A DNA stretch of 64,000 nt from Candidatus Sulfomarinibacteraceae bacterium (GTDB taxonomy: Bacteria > Acidobacteriota > Thermoanaerobaculia > Thermoanaerobaculales > Sulfomarinibacteraceae). Under the pieces are notes generated by a model. The model had not been told where the DNA came from, did no database searches, and saw only the letters and a program-made list of their open reading frames with translations. This document shows positions 34,037 to 64,000 of the stretch, one piece after another. Position 1 is the first letter of the stretch; each line of letters opens with the position of its first letter. The position numbers were made by a program, and so were the translations under genes. The DNA is taken from positions 1,248,001 to 1,312,000 of the forward strand of contig CAWCLO010000001.1 of assembly GCA_963796455.1 (NCBI GenBank), given 5' to 3'.

Positions 34037-34089
34037 GGCATCCTCCGCCCCGATGATAACCTCGCCCGGTCCCGTACAATGAACCGGAT

Positions 34090-37276: not shown

Positions 37277-37367
37277 CTCCACCTCCAGGTGGGGGAAGTA
37301 TAGACCGGTCACCTCGTCGCATCATTTTCGCCAAATCTGCTTGACAATCCCCCGAGATCCAATGAAC

Positions 37368-37397
37368 AAGGGCGACCACATGGGTCGCCCTTTTTTT
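37368..37397. terminator. Hairpin/terminator between the anti-sigma gene and ptrB
   Basis: aagggcgacc-acatg-ggtcgccctt, with the long T run on the + strand. Confidence 0.6.
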
Positions 37398-37416
37398 GCC
37401 ACCTGAATGGTTGGCG

Positions 37417-37875: not shown

Positions 37876-38139
37876 CAATAACTCCTGCAAACGCATATTG
37901 TTCTTTTGACGAGCGTCAGCACCATTTAGTCACATCCATCACCCAGTCGGGGTTTCTTTATTCATCATACTCGCGCGATAGGCTTTGGTTTCTTTCAACA
38001 TCCAACAAAAACGACCGGAATGGGTCGCCCATCCATCTCCTCCACCTGTCATCTATCTGATTTGACTGCGAGATTGTATCTCATCTTTTAGGTAAACGCG
38101 ATCTCGAACGCGTTTTCAACTCAGAAATAGTGCCGGCTT

Positions 38140-38898
38140 TCAGCCGCCGAGTCGTTTTCCGGTCACCACTCGAAAGCCACGGACATCGAGTTTCTTGCTG
38201 GTGTCGGCATCTTCATCCATGCCCGGCTCCAGCGAAAGCTTCCACTGGTAGTAGCCGGAGAAGAACTCACTGATCTTTGCCACAAGCTTGGCGTAGGAAC
38301 CGCTCAGTTCGTAGCGGATGGCGTCTTCTTCGCTGTCCCAGATCGTGACCGAGAGCATCCGCGAGCGGCGGCGGACATTCTCCACCAGAAAGACCCCCCG
38401 GCAACCTTTTGTCGCCATCAGGGCCGGTTTAATTTCTCCGTCATAGCGCTCTTTGAGTTCGTCGAATCGGCCGGGCTCGACCCTTGCCGCGACGATCCGC
38501 ACAAAAAACTGCTGCGGCCCGTCGGCGTCAACAATCTCACTCATCGCCGCCACCTCGACCGGATAGGCCTCGATCTCGGGATCCTGCAGGGCCGGATAGG
38601 ACCCCGACGCAGACGATGAAGACTGCACCAGACCCGGAGTGGCCTCGGCGAGAATGTCGTCGCTGGCGTCGAGCAACTCATCATAAAGGCCGCTTTTTTC
38701 GTATGCCTCGGCATCCTTTTGACTGCGCCATGTGGTCATCGAAACGCATTCGACGTCGTCGCCCGAAGGCCGGAGCAAGGACGCATAGAGACAGCCCTTT
38801 GCGTTCTCGAGTGAAGGAATCACGCGTTCCTTATAAAAGAGTGCAAGATCCCGGACCCTGCCCTCCTTGACTCTCAAATGCACGAAACGCATGTACAT
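38140..38898 (-). CDS. Tandem ABM (antibiotic biosynthesis monooxygenase-like) domain protein
   Basis: Two repeats of V.L....GC...S.T.W.S..DA..YE.SG.Y. Confidence 0.72.
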   Translation of the reverse strand: MYMRFVHLRVKEGRVRDLALFYKERVIPSLENAKGCLYASLLRPSGDDVECVSMTTWRSQKDAEAYEKSGLYDELLDASDDILAEATPGLVQSSSSASGSYPALQDPEIEAYPVEVAAMSEIVDADGPQQFFVRIVAARVEPGRFDELKERYDGEIKPALMATKGCRGVFLVENVRRRSRMLSVTIWDSEEDAIRYELSGSYAKLVAKISEFFSGYYQWKLSLEPGMDEDADTSKKLDVRGFRVVTGKRLGG

Positions 38899-39042
38899 GA
38901 CTTCACTCCCCCCTCGCCGGAGGCGATCTTCGCAGTTGCTGTTGTTGCACAGACATTATGGGTTCTCTCACTGAAAAACCTACGCCCTACTCGGTTTCAT
39001 TCCTGAATTCCAAAATGAATCGACATCGAGATTGCAGAAGCA

Positions 39043-39426
39043 TCATTGGGGGCCTTCTCTTTCTATCTTACGAACTGTCCGAATTCGAGTGGTTCTGAGG
39101 CCATCCGCAAACTCCAAAAACAGACCCGGCGCCGCAATGTGTTCGGTGAAGAGTGCGTGCCCGCCCGCCGTGCAACCTAGGACCTCGGTTCTCACCGTCG
39201 CCGCCCCTTCCCGCTCGAACCATCCCCCGCTGACATCAAAGGAACCATCGACCCGGGCGGTCAGCGAGTACATCGAATTCCGGGTCGAAACGATGACCCG
39301 GTCTCCCGGCTCGAGCTCCCCGCGCTTCACCCCGACGACAACTCCTGCCGCCTCCGCCAGATCGTCGATGGGGATCGCCTTCAAGGGCTTCACCCGACGG
39401 TGGACTCCACTCGGAGGATCGGTCAT
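39043..39426 (-). CDS. Hypothetical beta-rich protein (127 aa), coupled to the last kinase gene
   Basis: ATGA overlap at 39423-39426. GGAGG RBS inside the end of K1. Confidence 0.65.
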   Translation of the reverse strand: MTDPPSGVHRRVKPLKAIPIDDLAEAAGVVVGVKRGELEPGDRVIVSTRNSMYSLTARVDGSFDVSGGWFEREGAATVRTEVLGCTAGGHALFTEHIAAPGLFLEFADGLRTTRIRTVRKIEREGPQ

Positions 39427-42155
39427 CGTGTGCCTCCCGGGCCGGCCAGCCGTTCGAGTTCGGTGAACCAGTTCAGGACGATCTTGACCTCGCGAGGACT
39501 CGAGGCCTCCGGCGTGCGAACAAGCACCACTCGGTGGCCGTCGGCAGTGACGTCGTAGCCGCGGTTGGTCCAGTTGGCGTGGTGGCCTGTTTCGAAGAGC
39601 GCCACCGGCTCACCGAGCCGCAGCGCAGGTTCGGTGGCAACGGCAACCGCATGGAGTCGGTTCCCGTTCCAGTAGAAGATCTCTCCGTTCCTGCCCCACA
39701 GCGGGTAGCCGCCGCCGTCGCGCGTGACCTGGACTCTCGATCCGGAGCCCTCGAAAGGTTGCACATAGACCTCGATGCGGCCGGTGTCGTGGCTCTCGTA
39801 GACGACATGTCGGCCATCGGGAGAGAACGACGCGAAGCGTTCGTCGAACGGGCTCTTCCTGATCACACGCTCCTCGGTCTGAGCGTCCAGCGGCAGGGCC
39901 ACGAGGTCGCCGCGGGTGTCGGTCGAGCTCTCGCGGACCGCCATCCACCGTCCGTCGGCGGAGATGGCCTCGACGTAGTTGTCAAAGGTGCTCTCTCGAA
40001 GGAGCGTCACCTCGCCGCTGCCGTCCGCTGGCATCTTGTGAATGGCGAAGAGCGGGATGTCGAGTAAAAAGGCCAGATGACGACCATCGGGAAACCAGAG
40101 GGGCGAGAACTCGGCCCGCGGCGAAATGGTGAGCCGATTCATGATCTCTCGATCGAGGTCGTAGACCCACAGGTCGGGGGTTTCGTCGTCCACCGTCAGG
40201 GCCAGCCGGGTCCCGTCGGGCGACAACGACGGCGCGCTGTATCTCCGTTCGGGCGGCAAGAGGATCTCTTCGCGACCGTCCCGATCAATCCACACGACGG
40301 AACGATCCGGCTCGAGGACCGATCGCGGAACGTGGACCAGAACGCCGTTGTCGGAGACCGCGTACTGGGCGTGCCCCTCGTACGGCGAGGTGTAGACATC
40401 GTCGAGCACCGCGGCCGGCGGTCCGGCAATCTCCAACCGATCCAGATCGAACGGCGCCACAAAGAGAGTTTCACCACGCACAAAAACCAAATGACCGCTC
40501 GTCAGATACCGCCCGTAGACGGCGTCTTCCACCAGCACCCGTCGCGACCCCGACTGCAAGTCAAGGAGTTCGATCCTGCTCTCGCTCAACGGCAGGCGAA
40601 AGCTGGTGAAGATCACGGCCCGGCCGCCCGGCAGGTGGTCGGGCCACGAGTGGTTGAGTTCGTCCACCGACTGGTCCGGCTCCGTCAACACCTCCGGCGA
40701 ACCACCGGACGACGGCACCTTCCACAATCCGTCGTCGTAGGTCGGTGTGTAGACGATGGTCTCGTCTTCGCCCCAGGAGCCGCCGCCCCATTCGGCCTCG
40801 GCGAGGGTCGTCACCTGGCCCGAATCGAGTGAGATCTTCTGCAGCCGACGACCGTCGCCGGTGAATCCGATCCATCTGCCGTCAGGCGAGAAGAACGGCG
40901 TGTTGCCGCCTTCGGTGCCCTCCAGCGCCTGCAGCTCCGGGTCGTCAAAGGAGCGAAGGAAGAGCTGTGAGGTCTGACCCCTGAATGCCGTCACGACCAT
41001 TCGATCGCCCGTAGGCGAGACCACGACGACCGGATCGCTGTCCTGGGTCGAAAATGATATCCCGGGGGGGAGGGTCACCGACAGGTGAGCAGGAGAGTCG
41101 GATGCGCCGCTCGAAGAGGTCAGCCACAGCCACGCCATCACGGCAGCGGACAGAAGCGACACGACCGCAATTGAGAGCAAGACTCGGCGACCGGCAGTCG
41201 ACGCTGCAGCGAACGGAACGGTATCCAAGGTCGTGTCCTCGCCACGGTCCTCACGTTCGGCCAGGGAAATCCTCACGTCGCCCATATCGCGCTGCCGCAT
41301 CTTGGGATCCCGACGCAGGCAACGGCCGATGAGCGAACGCACGTACTTCGGGGTATCAGGCGGCAGCGCATCGAGATCGGGTTCGCTCGTGAGAATCGCA
41401 GCCAGCACGTCGGTGACCGTCTCACCCTCGAAGAGCTTGCGCCCGGTCATCATCTCCCACAGCACGACGCCGAAGGCCCAGATGTCCGCACGCTTGTCGA
41501 CCTTCTTGCCGCGCGCTTGTTCTGGGCTCATATACGCAGCGGTGCCAAGGATCACGCCTTCGACGGTGGCATGTCGGGTGATGGTGGGCGAGAACGACGA
41601 GCTGAGATCGGTGCCCTCCGCCTCCCACGCCTTGGCGAGCCCGAAGTCGAGCACCTTGACCGTGCCGTCGTCGGTGAGCTTGATGTTGGCCGGCTTGAGA
41701 TCGCGGTGGACGATGCCCTGCTCGTGCGCCGCCTCCAGCGCCTCGGCGATCTGCAGCGCGATGGGAATCGCCTCGTCAACCGGGATGGCTCCACGCGCGA
41801 TGCGTTCCGACAGATCCTCGCCTTCGACAAGTTCCATCACCAGAAAGGTGATCTCGGGTGCGGCTTCGTCTGAGGTCAGTTTTGAGTTTTGAGTTTTGAG
41901 TTTTGAGTTGCCGCCGGACGCAACCGTTTCCAAACCGTAGAGGGTCGCGATGTTTGGATGATTGAGAGAAGCCAGCACCTTGGCCTCGCGCTCGAAGCGT
42001 GCCATCCGATCGGGATCTTCCGCAAACTCCGGTGGCAGCACCTTGAGCGCCACCTCGCGGCCGAGTTTGGTGTCTTCGGCTCGCCACACCTCCCCCATCC
42101 CGCCCTCACCGATCTTGGCGGTCACCCGGAATTGAGCTAGCGAGGTTCCGATCAT
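39423..42155 (-). CDS. K1: Ser/Thr kinase, TM helix and PD40/TolB-like beta-propellers
   Basis: GEGGMG, VALK, HRDLKPAN, DFGLAK, YMSPEQ. TM LLSIAVVSLLSAAVMAWLWL and repeated SPDG motifs. Confidence 0.92.
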   Translation of the reverse strand: MIGTSLAQFRVTAKIGEGGMGEVWRAEDTKLGREVALKVLPPEFAEDPDRMARFEREAKVLASLNHPNIATLYGLETVASGGNSKLKTQNSKLTSDEAAPEITFLVMELVEGEDLSERIARGAIPVDEAIPIALQIAEALEAAHEQGIVHRDLKPANIKLTDDGTVKVLDFGLAKAWEAEGTDLSSSFSPTITRHATVEGVILGTAAYMSPEQARGKKVDKRADIWAFGVVLWEMMTGRKLFEGETVTDVLAAILTSEPDLDALPPDTPKYVRSLIGRCLRRDPKMRQRDMGDVRISLAEREDRGEDTTLDTVPFAAASTAGRRVLLSIAVVSLLSAAVMAWLWLTSSSGASDSPAHLSVTLPPGISFSTQDSDPVVVVSPTGDRMVVTAFRGQTSQLFLRSFDDPELQALEGTEGGNTPFFSPDGRWIGFTGDGRRLQKISLDSGQVTTLAEAEWGGGSWGEDETIVYTPTYDDGLWKVPSSGGSPEVLTEPDQSVDELNHSWPDHLPGGRAVIFTSFRLPLSESRIELLDLQSGSRRVLVEDAVYGRYLTSGHLVFVRGETLFVAPFDLDRLEIAGPPAAVLDDVYTSPYEGHAQYAVSDNGVLVHVPRSVLEPDRSVVWIDRDGREEILLPPERRYSAPSLSPDGTRLALTVDDETPDLWVYDLDREIMNRLTISPRAEFSPLWFPDGRHLAFLLDIPLFAIHKMPADGSGEVTLLRESTFDNYVEAISADGRWMAVRESSTDTRGDLVALPLDAQTEERVIRKSPFDERFASFSPDGRHVVYESHDTGRIEVYVQPFEGSGSRVQVTRDGGGYPLWGRNGEIFYWNGNRLHAVAVATEPALRLGEPVALFETGHHANWTNRGYDVTADGHRVVLVRTPEASSPREVKIVLNWFTELERLAGPGGTR
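41878..41909 (-). repeat. In-frame (AACTCAA)x4.6 tract in the K1 kinase domain
   Basis: Encodes NSKLKTQNSKL. Confidence 0.95.
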
Positions 42156-44899
42156 CTTCGATCCTCCGTCTCGAGCTTCGCCGCCCAATCAAGTACGACT
42201 ACGATCGGCTCCCGGTCTTCAACAGTGCTGCGATTGAGAACGAATGTCTGCCCGTCCGGGAAGACATCGTACTGACGGTCGGACGCCTCCTCGAGCCGAG
42301 CGTCGAAGAGGGCTGTCGGCGTGCCGAAAGACGGCGGATCGAGCGAGAAGACCGGCACCGCCATCATGCGCCCGGTCAAATCGACGTAAAACAGCTCCCC
42401 GCCGTCCCGGCGCCAGCGCGGTGCGAATCCGCCCTCGGTCGAAACACGGACCTCTCCGCTCGAGCTGTCCAGGGCGCGGACGTAGACATCCCAGCGCCTC
42501 GCCGCGTCGGAGTTGTATGCGATCCAGCGGCCGTCCGGCGACAGGTCGGACCCCCACTCGGATGCCTGGTCCTGGCCGAGGCGGCGCGGGCTGGGGTCCC
42601 CTTCGAGAGAGCGGATCCAGAGAGTGCCCCGACCTTGCTTCCCGATCTCCCAGTAGACCAGCCGCCGGCCGTCGGAAGTGAAAGCGTCCGTCGCGGCGAA
42701 GGTATCGGAGAAGAAAACTGTCTGCCCCTGGCCCGACCGGTCTGCCGCGATGCGGAAGATGCCGCTCTCTCCCGACGTGGTTCCGGTTGATGAGTAGGCG
42801 ACCTCGCGGCCATCGGGAGACCATGCACTCAGGACGTCGTCGCCCGAGCTGAATGTCAGGCGTGTCTCGAGGTTACCCTCGAGCTCGTGCAGCCAGAGGC
42901 CCCCCCCCGTCGACCCCGGCTCGTAGTGTGAAACGACCACGCGCCGGCCGTCCGGCGACAGACGCGGGGCGTAGTACCAGGTGTTGCTTTCCGCCGCGAG
43001 CACCTGGAGTTCGGTCCCCGACCTATCGGCCACCACCACTCTCGTCGTGCCCGCCTTGTCGTCTCGGTAGGCCAGCAGACCATTTGAGGCAACTGTGAGC
43101 GAACGCTGACCGGACACTGCGACGGTGCCGGCCAGCAAGATCCCGAGTGGCGCCGGATCACCCACCAACTCGTTCCTGCGATCGTCGAACCGGTGGGCCA
43201 CCAGCGACTCGCCGGTCACGTAGAGCACATAACCAGGAGCCGCCCAGACACCCGACGAGTTGGCGGGCCCGAGCATTTTCGAGTCGAGCGAACCGATCTC
43301 TCCCAGCCAGAGCGTTCCCGGCTCGATGCCGGTGCCGGTTGAGGCGTAAAAGAGGAAACGCTTGCCGTCGGGCAGAAAGCTCGGGAAGCGCTGCGTGCCG
43401 ATGCCGCTGTCCTCGTCGACCCTCGTCGCGGTCGTCACCTCTCCACCGCGCGCCGAAACGGCCCGAATCGGGCCGACAAAGCTCGGCGCAAAGAGAATCA
43501 GGTCCCCATCACCCCAGGTGCCTCCCCTCGCATCCTGGTTCGACCCGGTATCCGCGACGATCCGGGGCTGGCCGCCGAAGAGTTCGGTCACCTTGAGGTG
43601 GTTCTGCGCGAAGAAGCCGATCTTGCGGCTGTCCGGAGACCAGAATGGATAGCGGGCGTCGTTGGTGCCGGGCAGCATCGTCGCTTGACGATCTGCCAGA
43701 GCACGGATCCAGAGGGCCGTCCGACCGTCCTCCCCGCGGGCCACGAAGGCGAGTTGGTGCCCATCGGGTGACAGGGCCATGCCACTGACCAGACTCGTTC
43801 CCTGTGGCGCGCTGATCTGGAACTCGGCGTGGAACGGCGGCTCACTTCCATCGCCGCCGTACGAACCGAGCCAGCGAGGAGCCAACCACCCGAGGAGAAG
43901 GCCAGCCCCCAGAATGCAGACGCCGAGCAGCCAAACTGTCCGACTGGTGCGGGCAGTAACGACCACTGGGTCGACACTTCCCACGTTTCCCCCCAGTACC
44001 TCTCCGATCGTGATCCGCGCATCACCCATGTCGCGCTGCCGCATCTTCGGGTCCCGTTGCAGACAGCGTCCGATCAATGCTCGAATACGAGGCGGCGTTA
44101 CCGCCGGTAGGGAGTCAAGATCCGGTTCGCTGGTGAGTATGGCCGCCAGCACATCGGTGACCGTTTCGCCCTCGAAGAGCTTTCGCCCGGTGAGCATCTC
44201 CCACAACACGACCCCGAAGGCCCATATGTCCGCACGTCGGTCGACTTTCTTCCCACGCGCCTGTTCCGGCGACATGTAGGCCGCCGTGCCGAGGATCACA
44301 CCCTCGACGGTGGCGTGACGGGTGATTGTCGGCGAGAAGGACGAGCTGAGATCGGTGCCCTCGGTCTCCCACGTCTTCGCGAGACCGAAGTCGAGCACCT
44401 TGACGGTGCCGTCGTCCGTGAGCTTGATATTGGCCGGTTTGAGATCGCGGTGGACGATCCCCTGCTCGTGCGCCGCTTCGAGCGCCTCGGCGATCTGGAG
44501 CGCGATGGGAATCGCCTCGTCAACCGGGATGGCTCCACGCGCGATGCGTTCCGACAGATCCTCGCCTTCGACAAGTTCCATCACCAGAAAGGTGATCTCG
44601 GGTGCGGCTTCGTCTGAGGTCAGTTTTGAGTTTTGAGTTTTGAGTTTTGAGTTGCCGCCGGACGCAATCGTTTCCAAACCGTAGAGGGTCGCGATGTTTG
44701 GATGATTGAGAGAAGCCAGCACCTTCGCCTCGCGCTCGAAGCGCGCCAACCGATCCGGGTCCTTCGCGAAATCCTCCGGCAGCACCTTGAGCGCCACCTC
44801 ACGGCCGAGTTTGGTGTCCTCGGCTCTCCAGACCTCCCCCATTCCGCCGGCGCCGAGCGCCGCCGTGATGCGGTAGTGAGCGAGGGTCTTTCCGATCAT
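42152..44899 (-). CDS. K2: Ser/Thr kinase, TM helix and PD40 beta-propellers
   Basis: Full kinase motifs, TM VWLLGVCILGAGLLLGWL, many SPDG repeats. Confidence 0.92.
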   Translation of the reverse strand: MIGKTLAHYRITAALGAGGMGEVWRAEDTKLGREVALKVLPEDFAKDPDRLARFEREAKVLASLNHPNIATLYGLETIASGGNSKLKTQNSKLTSDEAAPEITFLVMELVEGEDLSERIARGAIPVDEAIPIALQIAEALEAAHEQGIVHRDLKPANIKLTDDGTVKVLDFGLAKTWETEGTDLSSSFSPTITRHATVEGVILGTAAYMSPEQARGKKVDRRADIWAFGVVLWEMLTGRKLFEGETVTDVLAAILTSEPDLDSLPAVTPPRIRALIGRCLQRDPKMRQRDMGDARITIGEVLGGNVGSVDPVVVTARTSRTVWLLGVCILGAGLLLGWLAPRWLGSYGGDGSEPPFHAEFQISAPQGTSLVSGMALSPDGHQLAFVARGEDGRTALWIRALADRQATMLPGTNDARYPFWSPDSRKIGFFAQNHLKVTELFGGQPRIVADTGSNQDARGGTWGDGDLILFAPSFVGPIRAVSARGGEVTTATRVDEDSGIGTQRFPSFLPDGKRFLFYASTGTGIEPGTLWLGEIGSLDSKMLGPANSSGVWAAPGYVLYVTGESLVAHRFDDRRNELVGDPAPLGILLAGTVAVSGQRSLTVASNGLLAYRDDKAGTTRVVVADRSGTELQVLAAESNTWYYAPRLSPDGRRVVVSHYEPGSTGGGLWLHELEGNLETRLTFSSGDDVLSAWSPDGREVAYSSTGTTSGESGIFRIAADRSGQGQTVFFSDTFAATDAFTSDGRRLVYWEIGKQGRGTLWIRSLEGDPSPRRLGQDQASEWGSDLSPDGRWIAYNSDAARRWDVYVRALDSSSGEVRVSTEGGFAPRWRRDGGELFYVDLTGRMMAVPVFSLDPPSFGTPTALFDARLEEASDRQYDVFPDGQTFVLNRSTVEDREPIVVVLDWAAKLETEDRR
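44622..44653 (-). repeat. In-frame (AACTCAA)x4.6 tract in the K2 kinase domain
   Basis: Identical to the K1 tract. Confidence 0.95.
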
Positions 44900-44908
44900 G
44901 AGACGGCC

Positions 44909-47900
44909 TTACACATCGAATCGCTCCCATTCCCGCCTGGCCCGCTCCATCGACCGGCCAAACCGTTCGTCGCCTCGGATGCTGTCCAGATAGTGGTCGT
45001 GCTCGGAGAGAAATGGGTAGTTGATCATCCCCTGGTCGATCGCCCGGTCGAGCCAGAGCAACGCCTCATCGGTGGCGCCGACCGCGGCATGAGCGCTCGC
45101 CAGTGCCCAGGGGATCTCCGCATCCCACGCGGCAGCCTGCTGATACGGGCCATCGGTGAGCCGCAGGACCTCCTCGCGGTCGTCTCGCCAGGCCGCCCGG
45201 CAGAGTCCCATCCACCATGTGCCAATGTCCGAATCCGGCTGCGCTACTACCCCCTCGGTCAACGCCTCAGCTTCATCGAGCTGCCGGGCGTAGCTCAGGG
45301 CCATGACGTAGTTCGAGCGCCACACCGGGGTGACCGGATCGAGTTCGAGCATTCGGCGCCCGGGTTCGAGCGCCTCGGAAAACCGGCCGGCGAAAAGCGG
45401 CACCGTGACGCTCATCAGGCGGCTCATCGGGTCGAGCGGATCGATATCCAGGAGCCGTGCCACCAAAGGCGCCGCAGCGTCCGGCTTTCCACCGAGCCAC
45501 CCGAGGATGTGAGCGGACAGCTGAAGTGCCTGGACGTCCTGAGGATAGGCCTGCAACACGCGTCGCCAGCTTCGACGGCTGCCATGAATGTCGCCCCGTG
45601 CCAACTGCAAATGCGCCCGGACGCTGGCGCCGCGAGGCGAATCGGGATCGAGCGCGAAGATCTTTTCCGCGCACCTTTCGGCCTTTGTGATGTATTCCTC
45701 TTCCCTGCCGCCGGCGGCCCCGATGTTGATGGCCTGAAAGTAGGCCTCACCGAGCCCCTGATAGAGCAGGGCGTTGTCGCCGATCAGCGCGAGCCCGGCC
45801 TCCAGATGGCTGACGGCCTTGTCCACGCCACCGGGCAGAAAGCTCCAGATCTCTCTCCGAGCGCGGAGGTAGCACTCCTGGGCACGAACGTCCGGGATGG
45901 GCCGCTCGGAGAGTTGCTCGGCTTCGTGCGGTGTCAGACGAATCTCGAGAGCATCCACGATCGATCGCGACACGCGCTCCTGGATGTCGAACACATCGTC
46001 CAACGTGCCCTCGAACTTGTCGGACCAGAGCTGGGCGTCGTCCGGCGCGTCCACCAGCCTCGCCGTGATCCGCAGGTTGTTCGCCGCGCGCCGCACGCTG
46101 CCTTCGAGCACGTACCGGCAGGCGAGGTCCCGGCCGATGGCCGCGAGTCCACGCTCGTCGCCCTTGAGACGCATCGCCGAGGAACGGGAGATCACGCGCA
46201 GCGCCTGAACCCGCGACAGATCGGTGATGATCTCGTCGGTGAGCCCGTCTGAGAAGTACTCGGTGTCGGGGTCGGGGCTCAAATTGGCGAATGGGAGGAC
46301 GACGATTGATTTTGTTTCGTCCGAGGTCTGTGGAGGAACAGAACGGGAAGGCGACGCTTTCGCGTTCTCGCCCACCGCAGCGTTCAACTCCCCGAGCAGA
46401 GCTTTCGCGGCTTGAAAATCCGAGGTGTCAAAACCCTCGGTGAACCACGAGTAGACCCTTTCGAGCGCTTCGTGTGCTTCACCACAGCGTCCCTGCTGCT
46501 GCCACAGTCGCGCCAGGCTCGTCGTCGCCCGCAGCTCCCACGACTTCGCCCGTTGCCGCTGGGCCACCTCGATGGCCCTCAAAAAGCAGCGCTCGCTTTC
46601 CAGCGGTTCGGATGAGAAGCAAGATCTCACCCTTCAGCCGATGAAGCTCCGCCTCGTGGAAATGTTCGCCGGTCGTGGCGACGTGGTCGAAGGCCTCGTC
46701 CACAAGGGTCAGGGCCTCGTCGTACCGACCCATGCCGGCACAGCCCTGGGCGATGACGCTCAGGGTGAACGACCGCGCCCACCCGAACTCGATGACCTCC
46801 AGACCAGCGACGCCTTGACGGGCGACTTCCGAACCCGGTTCGAACTCGTGCTGGGAGATCAGAGCCGAGCCCTTGCAGATACCGGCAAAATGCAGAAACA
46901 TCGGGAGTTCGAATTGGCTCGCGATTTCGATCGACCTTTCGGCCAGCTCCTGAGCCTGCTTCGCCGATCCGGTCAGCTGTCGGATCCACGAAGCGAAGCA
47001 CGGACCGAAGGTTTGCGTGGCGGGATCGGAGATCGTGTCACCCAGAGCGACGGCGGCCGTCGTTTCCTGGAGGGCCTGATCGGGGTACCCGGCCAGCCAC
47101 AGGGCCAACCCTCCCATGCTGTGGGCAGAGACCGCGGAATCGTACCCGAAGAGCGAGGCGAGCGACCCATGTTCGTCAGGCTTGTAGTGGGCCAGTGCTC
47201 GCGCCGCGTGCTCGCTCGAGGGCACCGGATCTCCGACGCACAACAGATTGTCGGCCATGACCGAGTGAGCGGCCACCAGCAGCCCCGTGTCGTCACCCCG
47301 CTCCGCCAACTCCAGCAACTGTTCGCCAACGTCCACCGCCGCTTCGAGGTCGCCCTGATTCTGGAAAAACTCCCAGAGCCCGAACAGTACCGGGAAAAGC
47401 TGTGGTGCGTCCCCGATCTCGTGACACAGCTCGCGAGCTCGTGAGTACGCCGTGCCGGTCTCGGGATGCCCGAATCCGCGGAAGGTCCGCAGCGCCAGTC
47501 CGAGAGCCAACTGCAGCTCGAGTTCGGTGCGGGAACGCTCATCTGACGGGTCGAGCATCCCGACCATCTCGAGGCCCTGCTTGGCAAGGGTGGCTGCTTC
47601 CCGATGGGCAAAGATCGTGATGGCCTGATTCGCAGCCGTCAGATAGTGCTCCGCCGCGCGGGCGAATTCTCGTCCGGCCTCGAAGAGCGCGGCGAGCTCG
47701 TGCGCCACTTTTCGGGTGTTCTTGAGATGAGCCGTTTCAAGTGCCTGCCCCACCTCGTTGCTCAGCCTCGCCTTTCGAGTCGACTTGAGGTCCGAATACA
47801 GCGCGTTTTGATAGAGCACGTGGACAAAGCGATAGCGGAGGGTCATGGTGCGGTCGGGAAGCTCGGTCTCGCCGGTGAACTTGACGAACGCGTGGACGCG

Positions 47901-56600: not shown

Positions 56601-58382
56601 GATCAGCAATCCCATGAAGGCTGCCGTCGAACCATCCATGGGGTTGAGGGCAACGGCCCGTTCCGCCGCCGTCCGGGCTTCGGGAAACTCACGCCTGAAG
56701 AAATGAGCCTGCGCCAGCGCGTAGTGAGGCAGCGAATGGAGCGGCGCCGCCAGGACCGCCTTTCGCGCAGCCCGAAGCGCCTTGTCGAAATACTCCGGTT
56801 CCCGGTTGTCCCAGTGCCCGAACTCGTTGGAGTACATCACCGACAGCATCGCCCAGCAGTCGGCCTTTCCGGGAGATTGTTCGACCGCTCGCTCGAGACA
56901 GGACCGCGCCTCGGCGAGCGCTTCAGGAGTGAAACGCTCGTTGTAACCGAAGCTGTGGAGCAACGCTTCATACGGGGTCAGTTGATCGGCGGGCTTCAAC
57001 GCCACGGTTTCACTCATACGGCGCGGCAGGATGCCGTGCATGTCCGCGACCGTCGAGACGATGCGCGGAACCAGTTCGTCCTGGAGATCGAACAGCGCCT
57101 CCGGGCTGAAGGTGCGGTCGTAGGATTCGGCCCAGAGGTGGGCGCCGGTTGCCGCTTCGACGAGCTGCACCGCGATTCGCAGCCGGTCACCGGCCTGCCG
57201 AAGGCTGCCTTCCATCACATAGCTCGCATCGGATTCACCGCGGACCGAGGCCGCGCCGGACTCCGCGTCGGATGGGGCGGCGCCTCGCGAGACCACGCGA
57301 AGATAGGAAAAGCGCGACAGACCGGTGGCGATGTCTTCCGAGAGACCCTCGGCCAGGACCGTCAGACCGGTGTCGCCACCGGTGTGTTTGAACGGCAACA
57401 CCGCGACCCAGAAGCCCTCGTCGCGTGGTATCGACCCGGAGGCCGACAGAGTTGAAACAGCACCGGCTGAGTCGGGTGAAGGTCGGAGGTTCGCATCCTC
57501 GATCCTCGGCTGCGGCGGCACCACCGTCGCCGATGAGGCCTCACGCTGGAGCGCCTTCAACTCGTTAAATACGTCCCGCGCAGTCTGATACCGGTCGCGG
57601 CGTTTCTTCTCGAGGCAGCGGCCGATGATCCGGCCGAGGTGGCGGGGCATATCGGAGCGCAGCTCGACCACCGGCGTCGGCACATCCTTGAGGATCGAGG
57701 ACATCAGCGCCGGCGAGCTCTTGCCCTGAAAGGGTCGTTCGCCGATTGCCATCTCATACAAGAGCACGCCGAGCGAAAAGATGTCGGTCCGGTGGTCGAC
57801 GATTTCGCCCTCGATCTGTTCCGGCGACATATAGGGCATGGTGCCCACCACCATGCCGATTCCCGTCAGCGCCTCGGTCGGAAGCTCGGTGGAATCGGAT
57901 ACATCGCCGACCTCGTGCAGTTTGGCCAGCCCGAAGTCCAATACCTTGAGCCGGCCGTCGCCGTCGACCATCACGTTCGGGGGTTTGAGGTCGCGGTGGA
58001 TAACGCTCTTGGCGTGCGCCGCCGAGATCGCCTCGGCCAGGGGCACCGCAAGATCGAAAAAGAGCCCGAGCTCCATCCCACCTTCGGGGATCAGTTTATC
58101 CAGGCTCCGGCCCTCGATGAGTTCCATGGTCAGGAAGCGAATACCCTCCGCCTCCTCCACCGAGTGGATCGTGACGATGTGCGGGTGGTTGAGCGAGGCC
58201 ACCGCCCGCGCTTCGCGCTCGAAGCGATCGAGCCGCTGCGGGTCGTCGACAAACTCCTCAGGCAGCACCTTGAGCGCCACCTCGCGGCCGAGCTTGGAAT
58301 CGGTGGCGCGCCACACCTCACCCATCCCACCGGCGCCGAGCGCCGCGGTGATCTGGTAGTGAGCGAGCTTCTGACCGATCAC
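53604..58382 (-). CDS. K4: Ser/Thr kinase with 3x(TolB-like/TPR) modules, 1592 aa
   Basis: HRDLKPPN, DFGLAK, then GFWVAVLPF, GFWVAVRPF and AIAVLPF modules. No TM helix seen. Confidence 0.92.
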   Translation of the reverse strand: MIGQKLAHYQITAALGAGGMGEVWRATDSKLGREVALKVLPEEFVDDPQRLDRFEREARAVASLNHPHIVTIHSVEEAEGIRFLTMELIEGRSLDKLIPEGGMELGLFFDLAVPLAEAISAAHAKSVIHRDLKPPNVMVDGDGRLKVLDFGLAKLHEVGDVSDSTELPTEALTGIGMVVGTMPYMSPEQIEGEIVDHRTDIFSLGVLLYEMAIGERPFQGKSSPALMSSILKDVPTPVVELRSDMPRHLGRIIGRCLEKKRRDRYQTARDVFNELKALQREASSATVVPPQPRIEDANLRPSPDSAGAVSTLSASGSIPRDEGFWVAVLPFKHTGGDTGLTVLAEGLSEDIATGLSRFSYLRVVSRGAAPSDAESGAASVRGESDASYVMEGSLRQAGDRLRIAVQLVEAATGAHLWAESYDRTFSPEALFDLQDELVPRIVSTVADMHGILPRRMSETVALKPADQLTPYEALLHSFGYNERFTPEALAEARSCLERAVEQSPGKADCWAMLSVMYSNEFGHWDNREPEYFDKALRAARKAVLAAPLHSLPHYALAQAHFFRREFPEARTAAERAVALNPMDGSTAAFMGLLIAYSGEWERGCELAERALDLNPNLPGLFHYTAWHDTYRKEDYRRALELALKLNTPGSFYQHAVLAMCYAQLGEMDAARKSLQDTLALKPDYGQSARQLHGKWIQPDLVEKLMDGLRKAGLEIADEDETAEAPSGDLASGEQRADEGFWVAVRPFTYTGDDADVSALGEGLTEEIVTGLSRFSYLRVMANDTSGAKARYVLEGSLRKAGTKVRLAVKLVDTTAGTHLWAENYERTFTAETLFELQDELGSQIPSTVGDPHGVLPHTMSELLRGRDPEDLTPYEAVLRAFGQGFRRTPEEHATVRACLERAVKQSPRSADAWALLAFTYVDEQSHGYNQRPDSLGRALEAAQRAVDSAPSNALAHSALAWAMYFRKELGAFRTAADRSIALNPLNSPTLAGLGALLAYAGDWERGCALVERAVELNPRHPGWYWFPLFYDAYRRGDYREAVAIAFKINLPKFFVTHEALAAAYGQLGEESAAGEALAEMLRLKPDHSQTGRERLEKWFDQELVEHMMDGLRKAGLEGSAPEPAESETRSKESSVVAIAVLPFQDMSPAKDQEYLCEGMAEEIMNALSRLDGLRVIARTSAFRFRGEHDLRKVGDALGVGVVLEGSVRRAGQRLRITAQLVDIASDSPIWSERFDREMTDVFEIQDEIAGAIVDKLHLSLDLAVPARRPTKNVKAYEALLEARHFFFQFTPEAAERALACLQEALSLEPDYPDALTEYAFYHVMMGYMFADPRVELAKARGLVERALQMDPDHGEAQAGVAIMSVVLDWDWLAAERHFRRALELAPASARVHELRGLISLLGRGRFDEALAELDRAVELDPLSALYAGNRGRVLTCARRFAEAEETCRRGLALDPGQLLAKVELIYALTFQRKFDEAVALGRKAVESYGRTKAVLNALAVSLAVAGEQDEAWRLLNDDAELGEAAYRSPLTPGLVHAACSEMDAAIECVGQAIDEKDPMLMYLQVHPMFDGLRDDPRYPELLRRVNLEGDQP

Positions 58383-61123
58383 CGGGTGCCTCCTCTCCCC
58401 GCCAGTTCCTCGAGCTCGACGAACCAGTCGCTGACGAGCACCACCGGTCGCTCATCGGTATACGACATGGACGGCCGGTTGACGAGGATTCGGTCGCCGT
58501 CACGGGACAAATCGAAGGAAAAGCCTGCGGCGTCATGCGCGTCCAGAGTCATCAACAGGCGTTCGGTCCCTGGTTGAAACTCGGGCTCCGTTTCGAACGG
58601 CACGCTCATGAGCCGGCGTCCGCCGACCCGGTAGAGGATCTCGTTCCTGCTGGGCGACCAGCGTGCGTCGTAGCCGCCGCGCGCGGAAATGGTCCATTCC
58701 CGACCGGCAACGTCGGGAAACGGTCGCACGTAGATTGCATAGTGCCCGGCCTTGTTGGAGTGATAGATCATGAATCTCCCATCGGGTGAGAACGAAGGGA
58801 TGATCTCGTTGGCCGGGGTGCGGATGAGCGGCTGAGGCGGGTCGCTGCCGTCGAGCGTTATCAGCCAGACATCGGCGCCCGTCTCGAAATCTCCCCAGGT
58901 TCCCACCAGCAGATGGCGGCCGTCGGGCGAGGCGTCGTACGGCATGAGTGAAATGTTCCCGACTCGTTCGAGGCCGTCAGAGGTGAGCAACGGCACTTCG
59001 CCCCCGCTGCCATCCACCGGCCGTCGCATGATCGTGGCGGTACCATCGCGGAAGGCCTGATAGAAGAGCTCGCGACCATCGTGAGACCAGGCGGGGTAGC
59101 GGCTGGTACCCTCGAAGGTCACGCGGGTCAAGGTTTCGCGGGCAAAGTCGTAGACGTGAATCTGGTCGCTCTCCTCCGCCACCTGAATCGCGAGCTTGGA
59201 ACCATCCGGCGACAGCTGATAGGTGCCGTGGACATTGCGCTCCACCGACAACGGTTCGTCGGCTCCGTCTCGATCGATCCAGGTCGGTACGGTCGCCGCG
59301 TAGTCACCGCCGCGAAGGTAGACCAGGGAGCCGTCGGCGGCCACGTCGTAAAGGGCGGTGCCCCACACCGAATCGGTCGCGACGCTCTCGGAGACCTGCA
59401 CCTCGGACCCGGTCACCTCAAGGCGCTCGAGATCGAAAGGCGCGGCCAGGAGCATCCCCTGGCGCACGAAGACCAGGTGACCACTCGCCACATAACGGGG
59501 AGCGTAGCCGTCGTCGATCACCTTCTTGACAGAGCCATCTGCGAGCACCACGGAGATCACGGCCAGATCCCTACGACCCGACGCCGCACTGCCGGAGGAG
59601 TGGTTCACCAGCACCCCGCGACCACCGGGGAGGGCGTGCGGACCGAACGCATCCTCCAACTTGAGATTCTCCGGTTCGCCGCCGCCCTCGGGCACCCGCG
59701 CCAGCCGGCTCTCGCCGTGGGTGAAGTAGATCCAGCCGTCGTCGGACCAGGTTCCACCCAGGGTCACCCCTGCTTCGCAGATCATGCTCGACGGCCCACC
59801 GTCCACCGGGACCTTGCGAAGCTCGTCCTGGTCAAAAAAGGCCAACCACCTGCCGTCGGGTGAAAAGAAGGGGAAGGAACCGCCTTCTGTGTCCGGGATC
59901 AGCGTCGACTCGAGGGAGTCGAGCCGCCGCAACTCGAGAAGGCCCTCGCCTCCGTAACCCTGCCCCAGGACGACCGCGTCGCCATCTGGTGAAATGGCTA
60001 TTCCGAGCACGTCCCGCGACCCACCGATTGGGGCCGGGATCAGAATCGAACGGCGAACGGCGCGATCGGCGGAGCCAATGACCGCGTTCGGGCTCGCGAT
60101 AGCCCCGTCGAGCATGAGACCGATCACGACTCCCGCTGCTGCGCACACCAGGGCCGCGAGCACCCAAACGGGTCGGAACCGTGCGGCATGGGGGATCTTC
60201 GAATCCTCGTGGCCGTCTTCCGCGTTCGAAAGCTCGAGCCGTACATCGCCCATGTCACGCTGCCGCAGCTTCGGGTCTCGCCGCAGGCAGCGGCCGATCA
60301 GCCTCCTGACGTGCGGCGGGGTCTCGGGCGGCAGCGCGTCGAGATCCGGGTCTTTGGTGAGGATCGCGGCCATGACATCGGACACCGTCTCGCCCTGGAA
60401 GAGTCTGCGCGCGGTCAGCATCTCCCAAAGCACCACACCAAATGCCCAGATGTCAGCCCGCCGGTCCACCTTCTTTCCGCGCGCCTGCTCCGGGCTCATG
60501 TAGGCGGCGGTTCCGAGAATCACGCCTTCGAGGGTCGCGTGCTGGGTGAGCGTCGGCGAGAACGACGAGCTGACGTCGCCCCCCTCGGTTTCCCACGCCT
60601 TGGCGAGCCCGAAGTCGAGCACCTTGACCGTGCCGTCTTCGGCGAGCTTGATGTTGGCGGGTTTGAGATCGCGGTGGACGATGCCCTGCTCGTGCGCCGC
60701 CTCCAGGGCCTCCGCAATCTGCAGGGCGATCGGTATTGCCTCGTCAATCGGGATTGCTCCGCGGGCGATCCGCTCCGACAGATCCTCGCCTTCGACAAGC
60801 TCCATCACCAAAAAGATGATCTCGGGTGCGGCTTCGTCTGAGGTCAGTTTTGAGTTTTGAGTTTTGAGTTTTGAGTTGCCGTCGTTCGCAACCGTTTCCA
60901 GGCCATAGAGGTGGGCAATGTTGGGGTGGTTGAGGCTCGCCAGCACCTTCGCTTCACGGTCGAACCTGGCCAGGCGAGCCGGATCGGCAGCGAAATCCGC
61001 AGGAAGTACCTTGAGCGCCACCTCGCGGCCGAGCTTGGTATCGGTGGCGCGCCACACCTCCCCCATCCCGCCGGCGCCGAGAGCCGCGGTGATGCGGTAG
61101 TGGGCCAGGGTCGTGCCGATCAC
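58379..61123 (-). CDS. K5: Ser/Thr kinase, TM helix and PD40 beta-propellers
   Basis: GTG 61123 after an AAGGAG RBS. Kinase motifs and TM VWVLAALVCAAAGVVIGLML. Confidence 0.92.
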   Translation of the reverse strand: MIGTTLAHYRITAALGAGGMGEVWRATDTKLGREVALKVLPADFAADPARLARFDREAKVLASLNHPNIAHLYGLETVANDGNSKLKTQNSKLTSDEAAPEIIFLVMELVEGEDLSERIARGAIPIDEAIPIALQIAEALEAAHEQGIVHRDLKPANIKLAEDGTVKVLDFGLAKAWETEGGDVSSSFSPTLTQHATLEGVILGTAAYMSPEQARGKKVDRRADIWAFGVVLWEMLTARRLFQGETVSDVMAAILTKDPDLDALPPETPPHVRRLIGRCLRRDPKLRQRDMGDVRLELSNAEDGHEDSKIPHAARFRPVWVLAALVCAAAGVVIGLMLDGAIASPNAVIGSADRAVRRSILIPAPIGGSRDVLGIAISPDGDAVVLGQGYGGEGLLELRRLDSLESTLIPDTEGGSFPFFSPDGRWLAFFDQDELRKVPVDGGPSSMICEAGVTLGGTWSDDGWIYFTHGESRLARVPEGGGEPENLKLEDAFGPHALPGGRGVLVNHSSGSAASGRRDLAVISVVLADGSVKKVIDDGYAPRYVASGHLVFVRQGMLLAAPFDLERLEVTGSEVQVSESVATDSVWGTALYDVAADGSLVYLRGGDYAATVPTWIDRDGADEPLSVERNVHGTYQLSPDGSKLAIQVAEESDQIHVYDFARETLTRVTFEGTSRYPAWSHDGRELFYQAFRDGTATIMRRPVDGSGGEVPLLTSDGLERVGNISLMPYDASPDGRHLLVGTWGDFETGADVWLITLDGSDPPQPLIRTPANEIIPSFSPDGRFMIYHSNKAGHYAIYVRPFPDVAGREWTISARGGYDARWSPSRNEILYRVGGRRLMSVPFETEPEFQPGTERLLMTLDAHDAAGFSFDLSRDGDRILVNRPSMSYTDERPVVLVSDWFVELEELAGRGGTR
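60846..60877 (-). repeat. In-frame (AACTCAA)x4.6 tract in the K5 kinase domain
   Basis: Identical to the K1 tract. Confidence 0.95.
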
Positions 61124-61145
61124 GGTTGGTCTCCTTCCACGCGTT

Positions 61146-63781
61146 TCACCGCACTCCCTCGACCACGTAGAGGGCGCCCACCGCGCGTTCGAGGGCGTAG
61201 GCGTAGGACTTCTCGTCCGCCGAGACGGAAACCCCGTAGACGGCCTGCGCGCCGACGAGATCCGCGGGCGCCAGCTCCCGAACCAGCGCTTTCCGGCCGG
61301 TCGAGAGGTCGAGACGCTCGATGCGGGAAGGGATTTCCATCGGGCGGTAGATGAGCAGGGAGCGGTCGTCCGCTCCCCAGTTGACGAGGTAGTCGCCGTC
61401 GACAAGCCCCGGCACGGGCGTCGGCTCGCTCCCGTCCAGCGGGTAGAGTTGGTAGAGGCCGTCGGTGTCCCGGGCCACCACGGTCGTACCGTCCGGGGAA
61501 ACGAGCCCGTGATCGGTGCCTTCGGGGGTGATGGGGCGAGCGGCGCCGCCAGCGAGATCCCGCTCGTAGCAGCGGGAGGCCTTGCCGGTCTCGCTGCCGC
61601 AGAACGCCACCCCGCGCCCGTCCTCGAGAAACCGCATCGAGGCATAGTCGTAAGTCGCAAAGCCGGCGACCGAGATGTCGCGAGGCTCGCCGGCTCCGGT
61701 CGGGTAGACCATCAGCCGCGGAGGCTCGGACATGACGACCACCGCCACCAGGGTCCCGTCGGGGGACAGGTCCGCGCCGACCCCCTCTCCGAGCCGGACC
61801 GGGGGCGAATCGTCGGCGGGTTGGAGGTACACCGAGTAGTAGGGGCCCGCCAACCGCGACTGATCCGTAAAGATGAGGCTGCGACCGTCCCGCGACATCA
61901 CCGGGAAGAAGGTCCTCTCGGACGACGGTAGAGTGCGTTCGGCCGGGGCGCCGAGGAATCGTGCGACGATGCTGGCCCGTTGGTTGGAGGTCGTGACGAG
62001 AAGCCTCCCGTCTGCGGTCATGTCGCAGATGGAGAGTCCGGTGGAATCGCTCAGCACATTCCGGATCGTTCCATCCAGGGAGAGCTCGCGGATCGAGTAG
62101 TTGGCGTTTTCGTCCGACGCCCCGAAGAGGACCGATTCGCCGTCTTCCGTCCACGCGAGCCCTTCCTCCCCCGGGTATTCGGGCGACTTTGCCACCACCG
62201 CACCGCTGCGATCGACGACGACGACCGGGCCCCGATTGTCCCACTCGAACGCGTGGTACATGAAGGCGATGATGTCGCCCTTCGGCGAGATGCGCACATC
62301 GCTGAGATAACCCTTCGATTCCGCGAGGACCGTGCCGATCGGGTACTCGAGGCGGCTGCTCCCCTGGACCTGCCGGATGATCGCGAGCTCGCTGCCGTCC
62401 GGAGACCAGTCGGCCGCAGTGACATCGTTCAGGATCTCGCGCGGCGACGCCTCCGCGAGGGGCATCCGGGCGAGCGTTCCGATGTAGGACCGGTGCGAGC
62501 GGAACCGGGTCCGGGTGAGGACCGCGAGCTCCCCGGTCGCGGAGACCGCGAGGAGCTGGACGTTGGCGCCACCCAGCCGACGGGGCTGCGGGTCTCCGGG
62601 GTCGCGCACGAAAAGCTCGGACGTGTTGCCCTGAAGCGCCGCGCTGAAAACCACCGTCCGGCCGTCCGGGGCGAAGCGCGCGCTGGTGACCCACTGCGGA
62701 GTGAACGTGAGCTTGTCGAACCGCGGAGGGGCCTGGCGGAAATTGAATTGCCGCCACAGTAGAAAGCCCAGCGCGATGGCAACGGCGATGGCGATACACG
62801 CCGTCGCCCAGGCCAGGCGGCCGGTTGCCCGTCCGGCGTCGGACGGCGCGGCGCCAAGCTCGACGTCGGCCGCCGGTCCGGCATCGAGGTCGAGAGCGAC
62901 GTCTCCGATGTCCCGGTACCTCCGGCGCGGGTTCTTCTCGAGGCACCGCTCGAGCAGGCGGCGGGTGGCGGGCCCGACGTTCTTCGGCAGGGCCTTCCAC
63001 TCTGGGTCGTTTTTGAGCACAGCCGCCAACACGTCGCTCACCGTCTCGCCCTCGAACAGCCGCCGGCCCGAAAGCATCTCGAAGAGCACCACGCCGAAGG
63101 CCCAGATGTCCGCCCGCTTGTCGACGGGTTTGGCTCGCGCCTGCTCCGGCGACATGTAGGCGGCGGTGCCGAGAATCACGCCTTCGATGGTGGCGTGCCG
63201 GGTGAGCGTGGGCGACAGCGACGAGTTCATGTCGCCACCCTCCGTCTCCCAGGCCTTGGCGAGCCCGAAGTCGAGAACCTTGACCGTACCGTCTTCGGTG
63301 AGCTTGATGTTGGCGGGTTTGAGATCGCGGTGGACGATGCCGGCCTCGTGCGCCGCCTCCAGGGCCTCCGCAATCTGCAGGGCGATCGGTATTGCCTCGT
63401 CAATCGGGATTGCTCCGCGCGCGATCCGCTCCGACAGATCCTCGCCTTCGACAAGCTCCATCACCAGAAAGAGATGATCTCGGGTGCGGCTTCGTCTGAG
63501 GTCAGTTTTGAGTTTTGAGTTTTGAGTTTCGAGTTGCCGTCGTTCGCAACCGTTTCCAGGCCATAGAGGTGGGCAATGTTGGGGTGGTTGAGGCTCGCCA
63601 GCACCTTCGCTTCACGGTCGAACCTGGCCAGGCGAGCCGGATCGGCAGCGAAATCCGCAGGAAGCACCTTGAGCGCCACATCGCGGCCGAGCTTGGTATC
63701 GGTGGCACGCCACACCTCTCCCATCCCACCGGCGCCGAGCGCCGCGGTGATGCGGTAGTGAGCGAGGGTCGTGCCGATCAT
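61146..63781 (-). CDS. K6: Ser/Thr kinase, TM helix and beta-propellers; 2-nt frameshift near 63471
   Basis: ORFs 63461-63781 and 61146-63464 are the two halves. Two extra nt versus K5 at PEII-FLVM. Confidence 0.85.
63504..63535 (-). repeat. In-frame (AACTCAA)x4.6 tract in the K6 kinase domain
   Basis: One synonymous substitution relative to the others. Confidence 0.95.
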
Positions 63782-63800
63782 GTCGATGTCTTTGCCAACC

Positions 63801-64000
63801 TCATTCTTCGAAGTTCAATTTCTTCAAGAGCGCGGCGAAGCGCGGATCGGTGCGCAACGGATCGAAGACCCGGTCGTTCTTGAGCCAACCCAGCCACTCC
63901 GAATCCAGCGCGTAGGCCTGTTCCAACAGGCTGACCGCCCGGCCGTATTCTCCCAGGCCGATGGCCACCAACGAATTGTTAAAGGGCGTGATCACCGCGT
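63801..64000 (-). CDS. K7: C-terminal tail of a TPR protein, probably another array kinase; truncated by the window
   Basis: FDPLRTDPRFAALLKKL matches the C-termini of K4 (FDGLRDDPRY) and K3 (LDSIRGDERF). Confidence 0.6.
   Translation of the reverse strand, partial: AVITPFNNSLVAIGLGEYGRAVSLLEQAYALDSEWLGWLKNDRVFDPLRTDPRFAALLKKLNFEE

Follow-up and report, generated by a model that had tools for sequence, protein, structure and literature searches.

This study analyzed a row of Ser/Thr protein kinase genes in a 64,000-nucleotide (nt) stretch of the genome of a Candidatus Sulfomarinibacteraceae bacterium (contig CAWCLO010000001.1, positions 1,248,001 to 1,312,000 of the forward strand; hereafter, the window). 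We consider it fairly probable that the row is a library of kinases with exchangeable predicted sensors, which is kept diverse by recombination and interspecies exchange and feeds a sigma-factor partner switch; the partner-switch output, taken by itself, is proposed more tentatively. The source genome, G000, is a 5.0-Mb metagenome bin of 10 contigs, in which the window is G000:C1:1248001-1312000, and coordinates are window positions unless prefixed by genome:contig. For comparison, 18 array contigs were retrieved from 12 genomes; Ser/Thr kinases were surveyed in 31 genomes, the common 120-nt head of the array genes was searched for in 25 genomes of the genus, and orf127, a gene at the 3' end of the row, was searched for in 81 genomes of the order. 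The genus Candidatus Sulfomarinibacter has been described from marine sediment (PMC8528874), and the two mentions of a kinase in the accessible part of that account both concern acetate kinase.

The kinase array and its anchors

The kinase genes of the window (K1-K7) all lie on the minus strand, and the array continues beyond the window to the end of contig C1, with K7-K10 reaching C1:1327025; in total, 10 Hanks-type kinase heads occupy at least 39.6 kb. When the 51 kinase loci of G000 were placed at random on the 5.0-Mb genome, no more than seven fell within 40 kb in 20,000 trials. A preliminary description of this DNA, made from the sequence alone, had reported a minus-strand kinase row that runs off the window. 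The coordinates of K1-K6 and the K7 end at 63801 bore this out, and contig extension enlarged the reported array of six or seven kinases over more than 24.5 kb. Neighboring genes share 4-nt ATGA/GTGA overlaps at five junctions, namely the three reported previously (42152, 53604, and 58379) and two more at 61120 and 39423 (between K1 and orf127); K3 and K2 are 9 nt apart, and K7 and K6 are 19 nt apart. In the arrays of the compared genomes, an xTGA head is found at 98 of the 125 internal starts. Because the genes overlap by 4 nt at most junctions, there is no room for the attC sites of an integron cassette array (no integrase search was made).

Five genes (K1, K2, K5, K6, and K9) encode a kinase, a membrane helix, and a propeller region (class A), as had been proposed for the four that lie in the window. 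The cytoplasmic proteins of K3, K4, K8, and K10 carry three or four modules composed of a TolB_N-like domain and TPR repeats (T modules), without a membrane helix. The helix-free class B of the preliminary description holds for K3 and K4 but not for K7, in which a membrane helix stands between the kinase and a single T module, and the STAND NTPase of K3 had been overlooked. The features are as follows.

39423..42155, minus strand: K1, kinase, membrane helix, and PD40/TolB-type propeller region; chimeric in sequence
42152..44899, minus strand: K2, kinase, membrane helix, and propeller region
44909..53607, minus strand: K3, kinase, three T modules, STAND NTPase with TPR, and one T module; approximately 2,900 codons, no membrane helix
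46310..48974, minus strand: STAND module within K3 (AAA_16, E 1e-24; Walker A and B intact, TPR after them)
53604..58382, minus strand: K4, kinase and three T modules, no membrane helix; intact frame, 1,592 amino acids (aa)
56175..57422, minus strand: T module 1 of K4, with a TolB_N-like alpha/beta domain and a TPR solenoid; the fold may resemble that of the CadC periplasmic sensor domain
58379..61123, minus strand: K5, kinase, membrane helix, and propeller region
61120..63781, minus strand: K6, kinase, membrane helix, and propeller region; 2-nt frameshift near 63470 in this assembly
63801..64000, minus strand: 3' end of K7, kinase, membrane helix, and one T module
61004..61123, minus strand: example of the common 5' head (approximately 115 nt), the start of every array gene in both classes
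41847..41927, minus strand: loop insert in K1 at kinase subdomains IV/V, 81 nt in frame, hexanucleotide repeat plus short stem
44591..44671, minus strand: 81-nt loop insert in K2
60815..60895, minus strand: 81-nt loop insert in K5
63471..63553, minus strand: loop insert in K6, 83 nt, bearing the frameshift
39043..39426, minus strand: orf127, small beta-rich protein, conserved, ATGA-coupled to K1
38140..38898, minus strand: protein with a double ABM (antibiotic biosynthesis monooxygenase-like) domain, conserved 3' neighbor
37417..37896, minus strand: RsbW-like anti-sigma factor kinase, conserved 3' neighbor (HATPase_c_2, E 4e-27)

The common head was matched in 21 of the 25 genomes searched. 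Eleven array contigs end in the orf127, ABM, RsbW-like, and oligopeptidase genes, and a gene for an FHA-GAF-SpoIIE phosphatase precedes 6/6 array 5' ends; a conserved promoter-like motif lies approximately 150 nt before the first gene in all six arrays whose 5' end is present. A single contig holds the complete array in three cases, with 4, 6, and 14 heads, and two of these arrays include a stub; those of G001 and G006 have only 4-6 genes. G034 has 11 and 16 heads on two contigs, which probably form one array of more than 25 genes. The comparison across relatives revealed that no two arrays are alike in order, although short runs are common to several and the 5' part is more stable. The differing order and content support the earlier view of an operon-like array with common kinase heads and variable binding modules. 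A kinase expansion in the lineage was likewise confirmed, with 9-73 Ser/Thr kinase matches per genome in 31 of the 31 genomes surveyed. The 5' half of the G000 array was not found at other contig ends or through the 5' genes or promoter motif of the relatives. Rfam gave no match in the 64-kb window, and a sigma-70 promoter scan of 36000-45500 found none.

The gene orf127 is present in 21 of the 81 genomes searched. In other genera, kinase genes lie in the same stretch as orf127 in eight of nine fetched genomes and adjoin it in seven. The protein has no Pfam, NCBIfam, or PADLOC family, and its Atlas matches are unnamed acidobacterial clusters. Its confident model (predicted local distance difference test [pLDDT] 90) gave no clear fold match (Foldseek best E 0.15, best Z 4.1), which does not by itself make it a new fold. 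The long repeat proteins P0001 and P0053, which are of the Ig/SprB type, were dropped as spurious homologues.

K3 is one gene broken by two frameshifts, near 49670 and 46617. These are probably assembly errors because independent short-read contigs lack a single base at or near both sites (X1 at 46617, in a 347-nt piece otherwise identical, and X8 at 49666). Such contigs also bridge the K3/K2 (X3) and K1/orf127 (X8) junctions. In K6, a 2-nt insertion near 63470 separates the N-lobe from the remainder, and the compared arrays contain 0-11 frameshifts per 10 kb. The flanking oligopeptidase gene (window 35143-37312), which is intact in most relatives, is also split into two overlapping frames in G000, indicating that indel errors are general in this assembly. 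Methionine-synthase-like genes (window 32781-34186) look frameshifted as well, and both frame breaks are probably long-read indel errors. Near G014:C3 321433, a TPR tail runs into the next kinase head at a short common sequence, with one gene lacking its end and its successor lacking its start; this fusion is either a deletion or an assembly slip.

Probable exchange of tail modules and common kinase heads

The 209 tail modules fell into 77 single-linkage types at 76% DNA identity (35 T, 37 propeller, 2 STAND, and 3 other) and into 118 types at 85% identity, and genes with several modules displayed 23 architectures. At the 85% level, the first module of K3 was present in three separate genes, and the last one also occurred alone behind a kinase. 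Stubs and truncated units were present in the arrays. The same tail type occurred twice in one array in three cases, all in G034 (G008 was excluded from this count).

Between G000 and six other genomes (G005, G008, G014, G016, G033, and G034), rpoB is 80-82%, secA 76-78%, and gyrB 76-79% identical, and the four flanking genes are 69-79% identical to those of the six compared arrays. Against those same genomes, the G000 modules reach 95-97% (T2), 93% (T3), 87-93% (K9 propeller), 98% (K2 tail), and 95% (K1 tail) identity; the K1 and K2 tails are 90-100% and 95-100% identical, respectively, to G034 genes. At fourfold sites, core genes differ from G000 by 0.45-0.57, compared with 0.05-0.25 for near-identical modules (T2, 0.05-0.11; T3, 0.11-0.13; K2 tail, 0.05; K1 tail, 0.08). 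No match to T4 or the K6 tail was found in those genomes. G075 belongs to another genus, and its rpoB and secA are 78% identical to those of G034, yet a T module is 95% identical; the modules of G075 reach 95% identity with those of the first genus. Overall, several sensor modules stand at 89-98% identity in comparisons across species, and even genera, in which core genes stand at 76-82%; such modules are likely traded between species. A strict polarity, with newer modules at one end, was considered and dropped, since the G000 array shows recent exchanges at either end. Of 26 mapped left breakpoints of T modules, 4 are contig ends, and 20 of the other 22 lie at most 100 nt from the module start.

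The heads follow another pattern. Over nt 150-450, K1 is 97% identical to K2 but 68-81% identical to the G034 gene sharing its tail, and both K1 and K2 are chimeras as judged by their sequences. K5 and K6 are 94-99% identical over the first 450 nt and then diverge, their tails being unrelated. In a head tree of 32 intact-frame G000 kinases, seven of eight array heads group together (97/92, although the bootstrap had not settled completely), and the kinase-body tree rejects a single array clade (p-AU 3e-45); K6 and K10 were left out of both trees. Among 65 propeller kinases, the tree of N-lobes without insert required 35 genome-label changes versus approximately 47 after shuffling, with 0 of 200 shuffles as low, and the propeller tree required 52 versus approximately 47, showing no clustering by genome (FastTree in both cases).

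In class A kinases, the loop between subdomains IV and V bears an insert. This loop was readable in 96 units, 70 of which hold an insert longer than 30 nt (up to 452 nt), and 60 of these 70 keep the frame (p 2e-19 versus one third). The inserts are built of hexanucleotide repeats and hairpin elements, with folding z values of -3 to -12 for six of seven; the 81-nt G000 insert, which K1, K2, K5, and K6 have in common (95-100% identical), gave no hairpin signal in the folding test. For 48 of 70 loop inserts (6.5 expected), the nearest other insert belonged to the same genome, whereas this held for the nearest propeller in 3 of 78 cases (7.6 expected). At the sequence level, kinase N-lobes and loop inserts track the genome and not the tail. 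The insert-type loop is absent from the 14 dispersed G000 kinases readable by the pattern, and the left arm of one insert element occurs at 71 G000 sites, mostly outside long frames. The short intergenic repeats of G000 comprise one palindromic arm (71 sites) and two short tandem types (41 and 23 sites). No link between the loop repeats and RAYT was seen; none of the six Y1 transposase loci of G000 has the tested repeat motifs within 1.5 kb.

Selection on the tails was assessed by the ratio of nonsynonymous to synonymous change (dN/dS) in 148 pairs of modules that are 85-99.5% identical and come from different genomes; the pairs are not independent. The ratio was 0.10 for the TolB_N part (83 pairs), 0.16 for the TPR part, 0.19 for propellers (52 pairs), 0.19 for STAND modules (3 pairs), and 0.20 for others (12 pairs). 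The highest value of any pair was 0.37, and core genes gave 0.03-0.15. Positive selection on the tails was rejected at the domain level (0.10-0.20), and the tails are likely conserved, working domains. Because they are under purifying selection, the sequence data attribute their diversity to recombination and exchange and not to point mutation. The preliminary description had set fixed order and tails under purifying selection against its own reading; purifying selection was found, but order and content were not fixed.

Domain composition and known systems

The array kinases match Pkinase in Pfam at E 1e-35 to 1e-48. The catalytic motifs (Gly-rich loop, VAxK, HRD-K-x-x-N, DFG, and APE) are complete in 122 of 122 full kinases under frameshift-tolerant translation, and an activation-loop Thr/Ser is present in all ten G000 genes; these proteins are predicted to be catalytically complete Ser/Thr kinases. 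The motifs previously reported as intact in K1-K6 are all there, except that the insertion in K6 splits off its N-lobe. Three receptor types can be predicted, namely a membrane kinase with an outer propeller, a membrane kinase with one outer CadC-like T module, and a cytoplasmic kinase that has one to six T modules and in some cases also a STAND NTPase. A model of a class A kinase paired with a class B kinase scored 0.55 against 0.01 for the best control, a mark that 116 of 157 solved pairs and 2 of 215 mismatched ones attained, and its runs agreed in at least 95% of contacts with a partner pLDDT of at least 78. The controls were non-kinases and kinase dimers have already been solved, so the pass may reflect dimers already known to the predictor, and the model weakly suggests that the two classes pair.

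The propeller of PknD is of the NHL-repeat type. The array propeller regions, by contrast, are of the PD40/TolB type, span approximately 540 aa with profile matches to Pfam PD40, DPPIV_N, and TolB, and contained no NHL repeats in the Pfam scan; the PknD propeller has six blades (PMC6213207). As in PknD-type kinases, a single membrane helix separates the kinase from the predicted outer propeller, a hydrophobic helix being present at this place in 69 of 78 propeller units. Among solved structures, PknA and PknB of Mycobacterium tuberculosis match the K2 kinase best (E 1e-47 and 6e-42). Unlike the PASTA kinases PknB/Stk1, the array proteins had no PASTA domain in the Pfam scan, and NF033483 matched the kinase part only, at 270-283 bits versus a cut-off of 450. 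The array also differs from PknA, PknB, and PknD in forming a single polymorphic row of coupled genes, some of which encode cytoplasmic proteins with several modules.

The T-module model (pLDDT 90) comprises an alpha/beta domain and a TPR solenoid. It may resemble the periplasmic domain of Escherichia coli CadC (PDB 3LY7-3LYA), an alpha/beta subdomain followed by a helical one, with which Foldseek aligned it over approximately 310 columns at E 2e-6 to 9e-6 but with TM of only 0.33-0.42 and identity of 13-15%; a wide structure search was dominated by generic TPR matches. In contrast to CadC, T modules are stacked up to six times behind a kinase, are often cytoplasmic, and have a longer TPR solenoid. 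K3 has Walker A/B motifs, a TPR region after them, and an N-terminal kinase in common with STAND NTPases and their fusions (AAA_16; Avs and bacterial NLR-like sensors; TOMM kinase/cyclase proteins). Its STAND module, the sole one of its kind found in the G000 genome, differs in being optional and inserted among T modules. The Walker motifs are intact in 10 of the 10 STAND-type modules listed. TIGR03903, a TOMM kinase/cyclase fusion family, matches this part of K3 at E 6e-69, but the 233 bits lie far under the cut-off of 705.75, and no cyclase domain was found in the Pfam scan of array proteins. The STAND part had no match among the PADLOC 2023 models, a library that does not hold newer families.

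Expansions of Ser/Thr kinases in bacteria are usually portrayed as lineage-specific duplications whose copies are dispersed. According to the accessible parts of the sources, the kinase-TPR and kinase-WD40 expansions of Myxobacteria and Planctomycetota are lineage-specific, with repeat-type tails, duplication or recombination, and some tandem genes (PMC11032199), and the kinase paralogues of Candidatus Solibacter show no positive selection (PMC3174227). The expansion studied here is likewise lineage-specific with repeat-type sensor tails, but those parts describe neither a single anchored locus of 4 to more than 25 coupled genes nor interspecies module exchange, common heads across kinase lineages, or repeat-derived loop inserts. 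A literature search, outside which most subscription papers and supplements lay, found no published account of such an anchored kinase locus. To the extent that these sources are accessible, kinase-TPR and kinase-propeller expansions with some tandem genes are already known; what this locus appears to add is the measured exchange across species and genera, the stacked CadC-like and STAND modules, and the defined signaling anchors. The loop inserts resemble, by description, the Rickettsia palindromic elements, which the accessible part of their account presents as genome-wide repeats of approximately 100-150 bp inserted in frame in genes (PMC3767692), in being hairpin-forming, mostly intergenic repeats that sit in frame. 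Unlike those elements, they all occupy one loop of one paralogue family, belong to several unrelated repeat types, and are common to neighbors.

Other genes were noted in and around the arrays. A non-kinase gene with a twin-arginine-like leader lies inside the array after one conserved propeller kinase (G015:C132 approximately 5250-6100, G008:C26, G006:C9, and G001:C15); its product resembles, we presume, a dienelactone hydrolase. A member of type X2 (G034:C28 793038-795560, with matching units in G005, G008, and G032) joins a kinase to a multi-pass membrane tail and has a head unlike the others. A second kinase tandem of three genes with nearly identical kinase bodies lies at G000:C4:490665-497091. 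On the plus strand of the window, 30146-32181 encodes a BlaI-type repressor and, after it, a BlaR1 M56 peptidase that carries fused TonB_C and PilN-like domains, 28490-28972 is a nickel superoxide dismutase gene, and 4245-6233 is a 662-aa open frame with no Pfam match.

Proposed mechanism and competing explanations

In the proposed mechanism, incoming DNA would recombine at the common kinase sequence and at the start of TolB_N-like domains, and conversion between neighbors would homogenize the heads. One conserved 5' promoter, together with translational coupling, would express the row. By analogy with PknB/PknD-type kinases, ligand binding would dimerize the kinases, with phosphorylation of activation-loop threonines, and the FHA-GAF-SpoIIE phosphatase would dock on the phosphorylated kinases and tip a STAS/RsbW partner switch, which would act on a stress sigma factor. 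This output is suggested because the FHA-phosphatase and RsbW-like genes flank the array (the phosphatase was seen in relatives, that part being missing from the G000 assembly), because one orf127 homologue is fused to an RsbW-type kinase domain, and because a STAS gene, an FHA-phosphatase gene, and the gene of a 902-aa kinase lie side by side at G000:C1:959479-964465. The phosphatase of this trio is 44% identical to the 5' phosphatase of the array, and we read the trio as a one-kinase version of the same circuit. G000 has 10 STAS genes elsewhere, three of them beside phosphatase paralogues, and none in the assembled locus.

A broader version, which we regard as rather unlikely, is a community-shared, integrase-free receptor library. 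Sediment acidobacteria of different species and genera would trade sensor cassettes at one locus through the kinase head, palindromic loop repeats may mark or promote the exchange, and a common N-lobe would let unrelated kinases pair, pooling dozens of inputs into one sigma-factor switch.

Several points weigh against the preferred reading of an exchangeable kinase library with a partner-switch output. All compared genomes are metagenome bins, and G008, which has two differing 3' arrays (C7 and C8; flanks 89-93% identical) and two gyrB copies, probably combines two related organisms. The module types were defined by single linkage; breakpoint pairs are not independent, and the variable linker before each T module favors breakpoints there. 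T7 and T9 of G000 stand at core-gene distance, so not all modules move. The head of K1 falls outside the array-head clade, and the silent-site (fourfold) difference of the head (0.33-0.38) is not lower than that of the HRD-DFG segment (0.28-0.44); protein constraint may therefore explain part of the head likeness. In other genera, orf127 can sit inside the array or away from ABM/RsbW, and the output genes are therefore not fixed partners. No STAS gene was found among the locus genes examined, the G000 assembly being without the phosphatase-bearing 5' half.

An immune or conflict role, in which T, propeller, and STAND-TPR modules would recognize phage, predator, or competitor molecules and the kinases would trigger dormancy or death, appears improbable. 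Variable content, interspecies exchange, and STAND-TPR modules, of which three types are present, are typical of defense loci, and the kinase domains score strongly against PADLOC kinase models, although these matches cover the kinase domain only. In the accessible part of one source, the sensors of defense STANDs are mostly TPR-like, but defense and non-defense STAND clades are interspersed (PMC13581612). Furthermore, the tails are under purifying selection, most members are predicted outward-facing membrane receptors, and the locus is fixed in the genus, flanked by phosphatase, anti-sigma factor, peptidase, and metabolic genes. The NLR-type surveillance repertoire envisaged in the preliminary description is, given the dN/dS of the tails, the lack of a PADLOC match for the STAND part, and flanks that are not defense genes, not supported so far.

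Ordinary paralogue expansion is similarly improbable. Unequal crossing-over, conversion, and uptake of DNA from relatives would then be by-products of the common kinase sequence, and the kinases would be independent, sharing neither an output nor a selected repertoire. In Myxobacteria and Planctomycetota, Ser/Thr kinases have undergone tandem duplication and recombination according to the accessible part of PMC11032199, and the approximately 41 dispersed kinase loci of G000 (including the tandem on C4), the small arrays of G001 and G006, and the stubs and truncated units fit this explanation. It accounts less well for the inserts that remain in frame (60 of 70), the catalytic motifs retained in every full kinase, the rarity of the same tail type twice per array, and the signaling genes at both ends of the row in the genus. 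An assembly or binning artefact, with dispersed paralogues or co-occurring relatives stitched at repeated heads, is very unlikely: most contigs break inside the array, frameshifts are frequent, and G008 resembles a mixed bin, but three arrays run unbroken on a single contig from one shared anchor to the other, identical junction sequences are seen in different genomes, two junctions are bridged by independent short-read contigs, and the 2-14% divergence of shared modules is strongly biased toward synonymous changes, unlike what collapsed reads would give.

The array recalls plant receptor-kinase or NLR clusters, in which signaling heads are stable and sensors are gained, lost, stacked, and imported. 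In its kinase loop, which repeatedly takes up mobile repeats in frame, such repeats clearly add to the protein sequence. The locus defines at least 77 sensor types and supplies natural chimeras, and it makes testable both the ligands of the common TolB_N/TPR and PD40 modules and the convergence of many kinases on one partner switch.

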